Shown here: in pieces, positions 32,516 through 46,560 of the stretch | Numbering within the stretch: the first letter of the stretch is position 1 | How the letters are laid out: each line of letters opens with the position of its first letter | Assembly (NCBI GenBank): GCA_028534125.1 | Contig: CM052849.1 | Location: 7,998,001 to 8,061,808, forward strand | Length of the DNA stretch: 63,808 bases | Direction of reading: 5' to 3' | Source: Lama glama | Taxonomy: Eukaryota | Made by a program: the position numbers and the translations under genes | Notes under the pieces: model-generated | What the model was told of the DNA's origin: nothing | Seen by the model: the letters and a program-made list of their open reading frames with translations, nothing else | The model's database searches: none

Positions 32516-35451
32516 ACTCTGAGCCTGGCTCACGGTCTGTTCACTGAAGTCATTTAATCCAAAGTGTGTCCGTAACAGTTGGAATTTGAGGGTTAGCCCT
32601 TTTGAGGCTAGAACTAGACAGATCCGGTGGAAATGGGAAAGTAAGAAGCTGAAGGGGGATCCTCGCTCTCATTTGAAGGTTTGCAATGGTCATCAATGAC
32701 TTGGGGAAGGGCTCAGGCTCTGTGGAGCCCAGGGAAGGGGTGAGAACCCAGAGGAAAGACCATGGGGGCCCGAGTGAGCCAGGGCGGCCGCCACTGGAGT
32801 GGGGGGAACGGCTGAGCCCCTCTCTCTCATAACTTTCTTGCTGATGTTTGTGTCTCTGAAGATTGGATTCTTGACAGAAGATTTGATTCAAGCAATGAGG
32901 ATGAAGACTCTTCAGGTAGGGGACCCCACTCAGGGCGGATCCATGGGGAGAAGGTTCCTGGGAGCGATTGGGTGACACCTGCTGCTTTGGCGACTGAGGA
33001 GGAAGGTGTAAAATCAGAGAGAGAGAGAGGAAACGTGTGCTCTTTTCATGTTTTAATGACATGAGAATAAGAACTGTCGTGTCTCCTGCTTTGGGTGCAC
33101 TGTTTGTAATTATCTCTCCTCGCTTTGATATTTAAAGCTAATCTTTTCCCCCAAGGCCTGCTCTTTTCTGCTCCTGCCATTGCCAGACACCAAAGCCACT
33201 GGTTGTGTATGGTTGGTGTCTTTTGGGAACTGAGCACTAGAGTTAAGGGGCTGCATTTGGGCGTTGACTTACAGCGCAGGATGTCTGGTGGGACACAGCT
33301 CTCTCATGAACCCTTGAACCTGGAGACAAAGCTCTCCGTGTGCGGTCCAGGTGCTGGGTGAGAAGTAGACCCTCTCCCTCTGCACTTTCAGGTCTAGTGA
33401 CAGCACCTCCGTGTCCTATCCTCATGTTTTCTCCTGGTTTAAGGGCGCTCCCAAGGTTGGGTAAGTCAGAGGGGCCAGTGGGGACCCAAGTTCTCACCTC
33501 CGCCGGAGCTCTGTGCTTTCTTTTCCCAAGGCCACTCCATCACCACCACTGCCCTCGTGCACACAGAAGCCTGTTTTACAGATTCTGAGGACTAAGATAC
33601 CAAAACCAGCAATCTGTATGTAATTTATTTACTACTTATTCCTCTTTTTTTTTTAAAATCCTGTTTACTTGCTACTCATAGACTCCTCTTGTAGCTCTTC
33701 CCCATCCCCTCTTTTTATGATTCTCACCCTGAAGGACCTGTTCTCATCCAGACACTTGAACTCCTGGGATCTCCAGTGTCTAAAAAATCTCTCTTCAGCC
33801 CTCCTCTCACACTTTCTCAGCAGCACTGTCCCAGCTCCTGACAGCCTGTCTGCACTATCGAGCCGTGTGGAGCCACCCTGCGTGGCCCGGGCATACGGGA
33901 GGGCTGGGAGTCAGAGGAGCTGGCACCCCTCATGTGGGTGTTCTCCTGCGCCAGGTGCCCTGGATACTCACGGTTGTCTTCAGCCTTTCAGCTGTCAAGA
34001 TTACACAAAAAAAACAAAAGAAGATTCCATCAGGAACCTGAATGCAGAAATCCTTTTGTCTTGGATTCAAGAAAATGAATCAAGAAAGTAAACAGAGATG
34101 AGAAAGAACAAGAAGAGGAAATGTGAGTGTAGAGAGGGTACAAGGAAGAGGGAGAGAAATGATGGCTAAAAATCAGCGCCAGCGCGCGGAGGATGGACTG
34201 ACGACGTGTCCCAGGGAGTGGATACCCAGACCTTGCAAGGCCGGGAAGAGAGTGCTGGAGGTGCCTGGAGGGCCACTGTATGCGTGATTCTGGGAGGTGC
34301 CAGTCGCATTGTGTTCTTTGCGGAAAGTGCCCCTGGAGTGGTTCAATATCCCAGCCCTGCAGGACTCAACCCTGCCCTCCCAGTCCTCTCAAGGTGGGCA
34401 GGGGGCACCTCGGCTGATCACTGTGGTGAGACAGTGTGGGATATCCTTGACCTCCCCGGTGTGGGGAAAGGGTGAGGAGGAGGAGAGAGGCACAAGGGCT
34501 CCTTCTCATTAAGCCGGACAGCTCACCTGGCCCCGAGCTGCTGTCTCCCTGTGGACACGTGGTAGCCTGGGCGTCAAGTAGGGGACACTGAAGGATCCAA
34601 ACCCAGCTGGGAGTCACATAGTCCCCGGGGGTGGGGGCCCTCAGCCTCTGTGGAGCCCTGTGGAGGGCCTGGGTCACCTCACTGCACCATTTCTTGGGCT
34701 ATGGTTCTACAGATTTTTCATAAACAAATAAAAATCAAACAAAAACAAAGATTTGAAGGAAATTCAATGCAGTGCTACCTTGGGGGTATGCTCAGGAGTT
34801 AAGATTACAAGTTACATTTCTTTAATTTTCCAATTTTGTAAATAAATAAAACAAATACACTTTGTGTTATATTTTCAAAGGCAGTTACTTCCTATGAGCT
34901 TTTCTTACTGCAATATACTAAGGCCATAACATTTATGATTTTACTATGAAAGCATAATACTTGGCTTTTAACTGAGAAGCACAGGCATCGTTTGGCTCTG
35001 AGGTGTTAGAAAGAAAAATGATTATTAGGGGAAAAAGTGCATTCCAGGTTTCTGCCCATTTCTACAGTGCAAGTCTCATGATGGGTCATTCTGAGTGTGG
35101 TGTGGGAGATGCAGAGTCACCACTCCCACCTGTGTCATCAGACCTCCTGCTCCTCCTGGGACCCAGGTGGGTGGGACTTGGCTTCTTGATCCTGGAGTTA
35201 CTTACCATATTTTTCTCAGCTGGAGCTTTGCCCAGAGAGAAGCTTGTGTGCGTTCCCGTGGGACAGTGGTAAAGCTTTCCTTGCCCACTGTCATTGGTAG
35301 CGTTTTGGACTTTAAGAATCTCTTTTATTTGATTGAACTCTGTGTTTCAACATCTCAATCAACAGGGTTCACATTCCCACCTCCTGTCCCTGCATGTGTG
35401 TCATGGAATCCAAGACTGAAGTGTGGAGCTGATCCACTCAAGATCATGGCC

Positions 35452-36900
35452 GAAGAATATGAAAATGAATATGTGTATGTATATGCATGACTGGGCCATG
35501 ATGCTGTACAAAAGAAACTGACACATTGTAACTGACTATACTTCAGTTGAAATTGAGTTGACAGCCCAGAAATAAACCCTCACATCTATGGTCAATTGAG
35601 TTTCAACAAGGGTGCCAAGATCATACAATGCAGGNNNNNNNNNNNNNNNNNNNNNNNNNNNNNNNNNNNNNNNNNNNNNNNNNNNNNNNNNNNNNNNNNN
35701 NNNNNNNNNNNNNNNNNNNNNNNNNNNNNNNNNNNNNNNNNNNNNNNNNNNNNNNNNNNNNNNNNNNNNCTAGAACTATAAAACTGTTACAAGACAGCGT
35801 AGAGGAAAATCTGTATGACCTTAGATTTAGCAGTGGTTTCTGCTAGAAACACAAGCAACAAAAGAAAAAGATAAATTAGACTTTGTTAAGATTGAAAACT
35901 TTTGGGCATCAAAGTTTACTATCACGAGGGTGAAAAGACAACCCACACAATGGGAGGAAAATATTTGCAAGTCATATATCTAATAAATAAGGATGTAAAA
36001 TCCATAATATATAAAGAACTCCTACACGTCAACAACAAAAATACAAAAACCCAATTAAAAGGTGGGCAAAGGACGTGACATTGACAAGACATTGACATAC
36101 ACATTTCTCCAAAGAAGATATAGGAATGGCCAATAAGTACATTTAAAGATGCTCAACATCATTAGTCATTAGAGAAATGTGAATCAAATCCACAATGAAA
36201 TAGCACTCCACACCAATTAGGATGTCTATCATTTTTAAAGTAAAAAAAAAAGAGAAACAGTTGTTGGAGAGGATGTGAAGGAACTGGAACTCCTGTACGT
36301 TGCTGATGGGATCGCAGAATGATGTAGCTGCTGTCAAAGTAGTTTGGCAGTTCCTCCAAAAGTTAGACACAGGATTTCCATATAACCCAGCAATTCCACT
36401 CCTAGGTATATACCCAAAGCATTGAAAACAGGCACTCGAAACAAGATGTTTGCACAGGAATATTCGTAACAAGCAGCCCAAGTGTTCACTAACAGATGAA
36501 CCGATAAAACAAAAAGTGGTCCCTCCATTCGGTGGAATATAATTCAGCCATAAAAGGAATGAAGTACTGAGACCTCTACCTTGNNNNNNNNNNNNNNNNN
36601 NNNNNNNNNNNNNNNNNNNNNNNNNNNNNNNNNNNNNNNNNNNNNNNNNNNNNNNNNNNNNNNNNNNNNNNNNNNNNNNNNNNNNNNNNNNNNNNNNNNN
36701 NNNNNNNNNNNNNNNNNNAAAAAATAATGGAGAGTTATTGCTTAATGGATACAGAGTTTAGGTCTGGGATGATGAAAAAGTTGTGGAAATAGACTGAGGT
36801 GGTGGTTAACACGGCATAGTGAATGTAAGTGCATACTTAAAAATGGTTAAAATGGCAAAGCTTATATACATCTTAACACAACTTTTAACAAATTTAAAAA
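35452..36900 (+). mobile_element. LINE-1 block: short young L1 3' end (35452-35553) joined to an L1MB-like ORF2 C-terminus and 3' UTR, with two N-gaps
   Basis: cccagaaataaaccctcacatctatggtcaattg…aagggtgccaag; ccagcaattccactcctaggtatatacccaaa; gatgaaaaagttgtggaaataga. Confidence 0.9.
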
Positions 36901-45329: not shown

Positions 45330-46560
45330 GGTCCCTGGTGGGCCTAGCCGAGGATATGGGGCGCCCAGGGACTCGCGTGTCAGCGCCGGCGGCGCTTAGG
45401 GCCGCGATCTGTCTCCTCCCCTTCCTCTTTCTCCGCCCCCTCCCCCTTCCCTCCCCTGAGCGCGGCCGCGGCCGCCTCCCACCCGCGGGATCCCGGCGTC
45501 CGGCAGCCCGCTCACGCGTCCGTCGGTCGGCGGGGTAGTCTGTCCACGCGCGGATAGCCCAGCGCCCCGGCGCGCGGCCTGGGAGGGCAGGGGCGCAGAG
45601 GCGGGACCGCGGCTCCCTCCCACTCCGGGGGGAGCCCAGGAGGCGGCGGTGCTGAAGCGTGAGCCGGGGAAGCAGGCAGAGCGGAGGAGAGGCGGTGAGA
45701 GCGCGGGGTGCTCAGGGACCCCACCCCCGGCTCCTGCGGGAGGCCCGCGCGCGCTTTGGGGAGGTCTGCGCTGGGAAAGGGGGGCTGTTATCCCTAGAGC
45801 GGGAGGCAGCTACGATCCAGCTCCCGGCTTCGCCGCCTCAGTGACGCGACCCCCGAGGGGCCCTGGGCCGCGCCTGCAGCGCCGCGCATCCTCGCACATC
45901 CCCGCGCACCCTGCACCTCACGGCGGAGCGCGGGCCCCGGAGGAGGAGAGCGCTCAGGCGGCTGAGGAGGGGGCGCCGCAGGCGAGGAGGCTCGGAAAAT
46001 CGCGCCCCAGCCACAGCCCTCCCTCCAGGCCTGCCCCAAGGGACCGCGACCAGGCGACCCCCTTTAGCCCCCCTTGCTGCACCCCCCATCGGCTCCCCAT
46101 TGTTCTCAGCCATCGCTCTCCCGGGAAGGGGGGAGGGGGTGCCGCGCTCTGTTCTTAAAGGGCCCTCTCCCCGTCTTGTCTCCTGGCAGGTCGCGAGCAC
46201 GAGTGGGGTGGGGCGTGCCCACGGGCCCCCGCCCCCCTCGTCCCCCAGCCCAGCTCCGGAGCCGCAGCCCAGGCCGGCGGCACCCTTCCCCCGTGCGTTC
46301 TTCAGCCACCCAGGCCTTCCAGGACCCGTGGATTGGGGTCAAGGGGGACAGGGACGCCCCCTTCAGCGGGAGCCGTCGGGGGAGGCGGACCCGAGACAAG
46401 GCAAGCAGCCCCACTGGAGCCAGGCGCAGGGTCTGGGACGCAGCTGCGAGCGCAGAGGGCTGGCTGGGCGCTGCAGAGAGCCGCGGGCTGGGGCTGGGCC
46501 TCCTGGGTGACAGGCCCTGCGCGGCCAGAAAGAACGGGAGACCAGCAGGCAAGAGCCCAG
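45330..46560. promoter_or_regulatory. DTX1: DTX1 CpG-island promoter with 5' UTR exons (probable acceptor tcctggcag ending at 46189)
   Basis: Very high CpG and GC content upstream of the DTX1 ATG; GC boxes; pyrimidine tract plus AG at 46188-46189. Confidence 0.85.

Follow-up and report, generated by a model that had tools for sequence, protein, structure and literature searches.

A rearrangement comparable to the one discussed here is an inversion in primates which, according to extracts of the report by Gilbertson et al. 2022 (PMC9142060), brought OASL to P2RX7 and disrupted Oasl2; the mouse Oasl1 and P2rx7 genes are given there as lying ~8 Mb apart. It follows from the primate inversion that the human C12orf76-IFT81 join is derived, so that the human order, which the initial annotation of our locus had taken as its baseline, is not a suitable one (here IFT81 still adjoins P2RX7). 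In camelids, Eckhart and Sipos 2023 (PMC9964502) described, in extracts of their text, a tandem of OAS1 and OASL in the Bactrian camel, the dromedary and the alpaca, three species in which OAS2 and OASL2 have been lost, and cited Perelygin et al. 2006 for the loss of OAS3 in cetartiodactyls. The latter loss is older, common to other cetartiodactyls and unconnected with the inversion proposed below. Additionally, extracts of another study (PMC9854896) place the genes that bear the names OAS2 and OAS3 in Camelus ferus in a cluster with OAS1.

In this work we analyse a stretch of 63,808 nucleotides from Lama glama (assembly GCA_028534125.1, CM052849.1:7,998,001-8,061,808), hereafter the window, which lies on a 21.1-Mb contig (C34) and carries the gene series ANKRD13A (+), C12orf76 (-) and DTX1 (+). 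With high probability, the window marks the left boundary of a genuine inversion of ~5.3 Mb, which flipped the block from OASL to DTX1 in a camelid ancestor. It is very likely the other end of the event reported in PMC9964502.

Results

Gene content of the window

The features of the window are the following (window coordinates, strand, description):

3754..10221, plus strand, 3' part of ANKRD13A (ANKRD13_C exon at 3754-3913, last coding exon with UIMs at 10030-10221), beyond the proposed inverted block
15633..19586, minus strand, presumed C12orf76 orthologue (coding exons 19586-19448 and ~15720-15633), the last gene before the junction
19600..45330, no strand, probable left inversion junction interval, with no detectable OASL2 5' exons or OAS2 3' exons
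25284..26100, minus strand, 3' end of a young L1 (87% identical to another copy) that abuts a run of 500 Ns
27538..34091, plus strand, gene-like block without a name (short exons that have splice sites, elevated CpG and a duplication of 400 bases within the block)
35453..36900, plus strand, L1 block (a short young 3' end, then the 3' part of an old L1), in register across two 135-N stretches
45330..63808, plus strand, CpG island and 5' part of DTX1 (WWE exon at 46958-47155), the first gene in the proposed inverted block

The DTX1 assignment rests on its WWE exon (46958-47155; Pfam E 2e-14), which over 66 amino acids shows 100% identity with the WWE portion of a gene model from a rodent. The ANKRD13A gene was recognised by Pfam ANKRD13_C (3754-3912, E 7e-4) and UIM (10031-10219, E 8e-4) matches, both slightly below the Pfam cut-off, and we take it to be the A paralogue, rather than B or D, from synteny. 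The third gene is a two-exon open frame on the minus strand without a match in Pfam or Atlas, presumably C12orf76, judging by its sequence. CpG islands lie at ~19.3-19.8 kb and from 45.3 kb onward, at a spacing of 25.8 kb. The gene content and the islands thus bear out the initial annotation, which had these three genes together with about 26 kb between the last two.

That annotation had also found no OAS exon between C12orf76 and DTX1, and our scans agree. Profile HMMs made from 7 OAS2, 17 OASL and 11 OAS3 proteins scored, at best, -0.1 (OAS2), -0.5 (OASL) and 1.7 bits (OAS3) over 19.6-45.3 kb, against 5.4 bits for a reversed control and 33-78 bits for the decayed remnants at the far junction described below. 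A tblastn search of the same interval with 213 OAS-domain proteins gave no OAS-domain match below E 0.004. A candidate OAS3 exon at 33786-33935 (weak tblastn matches, E 0.02-0.3) scored 0.2 bits with the HMM and was dismissed as a chance match.

The reciprocal junction

The matching second junction is found 5.3 Mb further along this contig (5.30 Mb from the DTX1 island to OASL). The Pfam OAS1_C domain has 21 matches in the genome, seven of them on the minus strand of C34 at 13.33-13.37 Mb, and 200 kb of the contig were examined around this point. The features that bear on the gene order are (C34 coordinates, strand, description):

past the window, after DTX1, minus strand, RASAL1 (RasGAP, PH and BTK in 4 of 83 ORFs)
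8.85 and 9.01 Mb, minus strand, two T-box genes (presumably TBX5 and TBX3)
13.300-13.307 Mb, plus strand, HNF1A
13,343,683-13,327,506, minus strand, OASL, six exons, stop-free
13,349,27x-13,348,902, minus strand, OASL2 remnant, 3' part of the last exon (103 bits with OASL2, 45 with OASL)
13,357,275-135, minus strand, OAS2 exon 3 remnant (86 bits with OAS2, 47 with the next best)
13,361,354-232, minus strand, OAS2 exon 1 remnant (60 bits with OAS2, 30 with the next best)
13,371,223-13,365,428, minus strand, OAS1, CaaX motif at its end, exon 2 at a 500-N run
13.378-13.392 Mb, minus strand, presumed RPH3A (C2 motifs)
15.207 Mb, minus strand, IFT81, adjoining the P2X genes
15.26-15.31 Mb, plus strand, P2RX7 and P2RX4 (two P2X genes)

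The names TBX5 and TBX3 are our assumption from the gene order, and RPH3A was placed by C2 motifs which we presume to be those of this gene; Pfam FYVE_2 gave no match for it, and none in the 99 ORFs scanned of 154 listed.

At 13.33-13.37 Mb, OAS1 and OASL stand in tandem on the minus strand, 22 kb apart, and between them lie pieces of two further genes. On its 5' side the homology to the last exon of OASL2 ends at ~13,349,270 against a dispersed repeat. Exons 3 and 1 of OAS2 match bat and pangolin OAS2 at 85% and 63%; they carry one stop each, neither the start codon nor the donor of exon 3 survives, and exon 2 has left a weak trace. Between OAS1 and what remains of OAS2 sits a weak candidate for an OAS3 exon (14 bits; 37 versus 28 for OAS2). 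The far break is thus confined to the 7.8 kb between the OASL2 and OAS2 remnants (13,349,270-13,357,135).

Gene order and the number of steps

Along C34 the order is now ANKRD13A+, C12orf76- / DTX1+, RASAL1-, TBX5-, TBX3- ... HNF1A+, OASL-, OASL2 remnant-, followed, after the far break, by OAS2 remnant-, OAS1-, RPH3A- ... IFT81-, P2RX7+, P2RX4+. The ancestral order would have been C12orf76, OASL2+, OASL+ ... DTX1-, OAS2-, OAS3-, OAS1- ... IFT81, P2RX7, where the C12orf76-OASL2 neighbourhood and the mouse-like order are assumed. Parts of this order are seen in fused gene models of other mammals: OAS3, OAS2 and the DTX1 WWE part on a single strand in a rodent (P0099), and OASL2 followed by OASL in an anteater and a sloth (P0001 and P0002). 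One inversion of the block from OASL to DTX1 fits the order and strand of every placed marker, collinearity within the block being judged from five markers (DTX1, RASAL1, TBX5, TBX3 and HNF1A) and from an outgroup order that is in part assumed. One inversion of a mouse-like order gives both junctions, and the mouse, to which the initial annotation had pointed, is indeed informative.

The two breaks would have fallen within or next to OASL2 and OAS2, respectively. The 5' exons of OASL2 and exons 4 onward of OAS2 would then be expected in the window; as these halves are absent from it and have no orthologue-level match elsewhere, we infer that they were lost by deletion during the event or later, and this would account for the window holding no OAS exon. 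The pieces that remained at the far junction would have decayed afterwards. It could also be that OAS2 and OASL2 were already dead before the breaks, or were trimmed later.

We consider it decidedly unlikely that the present order arose in several steps (for instance by inversions nested in one another, or if the block from OAS1 to IFT81 had been translocated) or before the camelids. Extracts of PMC9142060 do term the Oasl locus unstable and repeatedly rearranged, and the markers within the block are few; still, the placed markers all fit one inversion, and, according to extracts of PMC9964502, camelids alone among terrestrial cetartiodactyls are without OAS2, which speaks against an older age.

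Assembly gaps and repeats

The initial annotation saw in the N-gaps of the L1 block a possible scaffolding artefact. This suspicion does not hold: the L1 flanks are in register across both 135-N stretches, and their spacing is that of other L1 copies. Among 23 other loci (the locus of the window itself and one identical twin having been excluded), eight were informative for each stretch; the flanks of the first stretch lie 122-141 bases apart in seven of them (702 in the other), and those of the second 142-149 bases apart in six (198 and 331 in the others). The two stretches join no unrelated DNA.

The 500-N runs are a different matter. One lies at ~25.6-26.1 kb of the window and another within the far break interval, each adjoining a young L1 piece, and 500 is the most frequent N-run length in the loci fetched. 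Of all places in 19600..45330, that at 25284..26100 is the best candidate for a true assembly gap, and the sole unbridged one. A block of 5.3 Mb set in the wrong orientation between two such gaps would produce both junctions artificially, and the junctions given here are those of the assembly. Nevertheless, that the C12orf76-DTX1 adjacency is an assembly artefact is unlikely, and a misoriented block of this kind is, in our estimate, very improbable indeed. Extracts of PMC9964502 give the OAS1-OASL tandem for three separately named camelid assemblies, and a block turned round again between the gaps would restore neither gene, the missing exons of OASL2 (5') and OAS2 (3') being neither in the window nor found elsewhere; the stops in the OAS2 remnants and the L1 register also argue against it.

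Position and route of the breaks

Within the window the break is confined to an interval of 26 kb. The initial annotation put it, as probable, at or after the L1 block; a site at that block is indicated by none of our analyses. A CpG change-point scan gave its best single point at 38.0 kb, which was matched by 5.4% of 500 permutations, the ancestral sides being without a usable difference. The stretch at 26.2-35.4 kb was found in 14 of 24 sequencing runs listed (share 0.87-0.94, five coded organisms), which attests to its presence and not to its adjacency; two RNA runs contain 0.25-0.27 of its words, a measure of word content that is no evidence of expression.

This stretch includes the gene-like block, whose internal duplication (27538-27928 against 29284-29691) is 68% identical. 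Homologue searches with the block, including its last exon, returned none; matches to a snail repeat protein and to a repeat protein of unnamed source were spurious. An SP100/SP140-like identity was likewise rejected, as the window holds no HSR match and the comparison with 200 kb of the SP cluster gave nothing over the control.

As for the route by which the inversion came about, breakage without homology, accompanied by deletion, is likelier. Homologous recombination, either between the opposed genes OASL2 and OAS2 or between L1 copies in inverted orientation, is improbable, even though the two genes would have been inverted paralogues in the proposed ancestor, with both breaks in or beside them, and an L1 (-) next to the remnant of OASL2 has a match in an old L1 of the window (+). 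Neither junction holds a chimeric OASL2/OAS2 exon chain, and the point at which OAS2 ends, after exon 3, does not correspond to the point within the last exon at which OASL2 resumes. We found no highly similar inverted repeats at the junctions: the best pair, of old L1 copies, is 68% identical over 227 bases, as unrelated old copies are (70-74%), and the pieces of young L1 next to the 500-N runs both point the same way instead of being inverted.

OAS genes in the rest of the genome

Searches for the OAS genes, which the initial annotation had proposed, placed OAS1 and OASL at the far junction and returned OAS2 and OASL2 as fragments only. Protein searches of the whole genome with OAS2 and OASL2 (36 and 33 matches) gave orthologue-level matches at the far junction only, and the loci examined held fragments and no intact OAS2, OAS3 or OASL2. 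Small unplaced contigs matching OAS2 at 40-56% are presumed to be OAS1 copies. Because the assembly is fragmented (1,072,352 contigs), the absence of an exon is here a statement of lower confidence.

The remaining genes are camelid in character: an OAS1 exon shares 99% identity with a Vicugna pacos model and 86-87% with those of Camelus, an OASL exon is 95% identical to V. pacos, and alpaca models match OAS1 exons at 92-100% and OASL exons at 90-100%. Duplicated OAS1 gene models occur among the matches, in agreement with the grouping given in the extracts of PMC9854896. For OAS4, expected in the ERAP2-RIOK2 region, a candidate is a divergent OAS exon on contig C112396, present in two copies of opposite orientation.

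The view that both OAS-bearing flanks had been removed or moved therefore stands in part: the OAS content has changed, yet the genes were not simply removed, as OAS1 and OASL lie on the same contig 5.3 Mb away. Likewise, a rearrangement junction that altered the OAS genes in this lineage, a camelid one, is supported, OAS2 and OASL2 having been left as fragments.

Discussion

The rearrangement and the gene losses are already published, as the extracts of PMC9964502 make clear, and the detail added here is modest: the reciprocal junction, and gene remnants that narrow the far break to 7.8 kb. As in that report, we find OAS1 and OASL in tandem in a camelid, with intact OAS2, OAS3 and OASL2 absent. 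Beyond it, exons 1 and 3 of OAS2, the last exon of OASL2 and possibly an OAS3 exon persist as fragments. The text of PMC9964502, as far as its extracts go, speaks neither of an inversion or its size nor of breakpoints or remnants (its Figure 2 may show neighbours), and neither the remnants nor the join of C12orf76 to DTX1 turned up in a search of the literature, including the supplement (subscription journals and that figure lying outside its scope). In the same way as in other cetartiodactyls, an intact OAS3 is absent here, with a weak OAS3-like exon remaining.

The proposed camelid inversion resembles that of primates in its megabase scale, in one break at OASL2 and in the single intact OASL that is left. 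They differ in the other break: in primates it lies at IFT81/P2RX7, and OAS2-DTX1 survives in human, whereas here it lies at OAS2/DTX1, and IFT81-P2RX7 survives. The remnants suggest that the OASL2 breakpoint was reused. We tentatively put forward, at somewhat under even chances, that one inversion cut both genes, OASL2 within the last exon and OAS2 just past exon 3, so that they were lost at once; that OASL2 is a reused mammalian breakpoint, with separate breaks in the primate and the camelid lineages; and that the leftover 5' end of OAS2, upstream of OASL, could drive or boost the interferon response of the latter.

Camelids would rely on duplicated OAS1, OASL and OAS4. That they host the MERS coronavirus is established (and cited by PMC9964502), and the reduction of their OAS genes is of interest for comparative immunology, to which the new details do not bring a new system, being instead of use to specialists.

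Gene-like block and possible position of the break

Between C12orf76 and DTX1 lies a gene-like block with raised CpG, made of small acidic exons, in which one exon pair is duplicated, one exon carries an in-frame stop and the final three exons agree in phase and terminate at a stop:

Window 27538-34091, + strand, gene-like block

In mouse, the C12orf76 orthologue is separated from Oasl2 by an uncharacterised plus-strand gene; should the block be orthologous to that gene, the inversion break would lie beyond 34.1 kb.

Sequences at the far junction

At the other end of the likely inversion, on contig C34 of the llama assembly (G000), we found:

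L042:2740-3961 (locus in the far break interval), - strand, GC-rich retrocopy-like stretch
C34:13,362,663-13,362,505 (L013, inside L025), - strand, weak OAS3-like exon remnant (14 bits), between OAS1 and the OAS2 remnant
C34:13,364,452-13,364,333, fragment resembling OAS1 exon 2
C34:13,365,428-13,371,223, - strand, OAS1

The retrocopy-like stretch contains a poly(A) signal and extends into the 500-N run, and a Pfam search of it gave no match.

OAS copies elsewhere in the assembly

A divergent OAS exon, a candidate OAS4, occurs twice in G000, with identical scores and opposite orientations:

C112396:109,449-109,637, + strand
C112396:598,411-598,599, - strand

This mirror pattern also occurs in contigs C44481 and C1005691, which suggests that some contigs carry palindromic assembly artefacts.

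A further OAS1 copy lies on the unplaced 3.6-kb contig C100443 (L001), OAS1-like exons are also present on many small contigs, and Camelus and alpaca gene models (P0107, P0109 and P0110) are OAS1 pairs in tandem; the OAS1 duplication has therefore probably been collapsed in the llama assembly.
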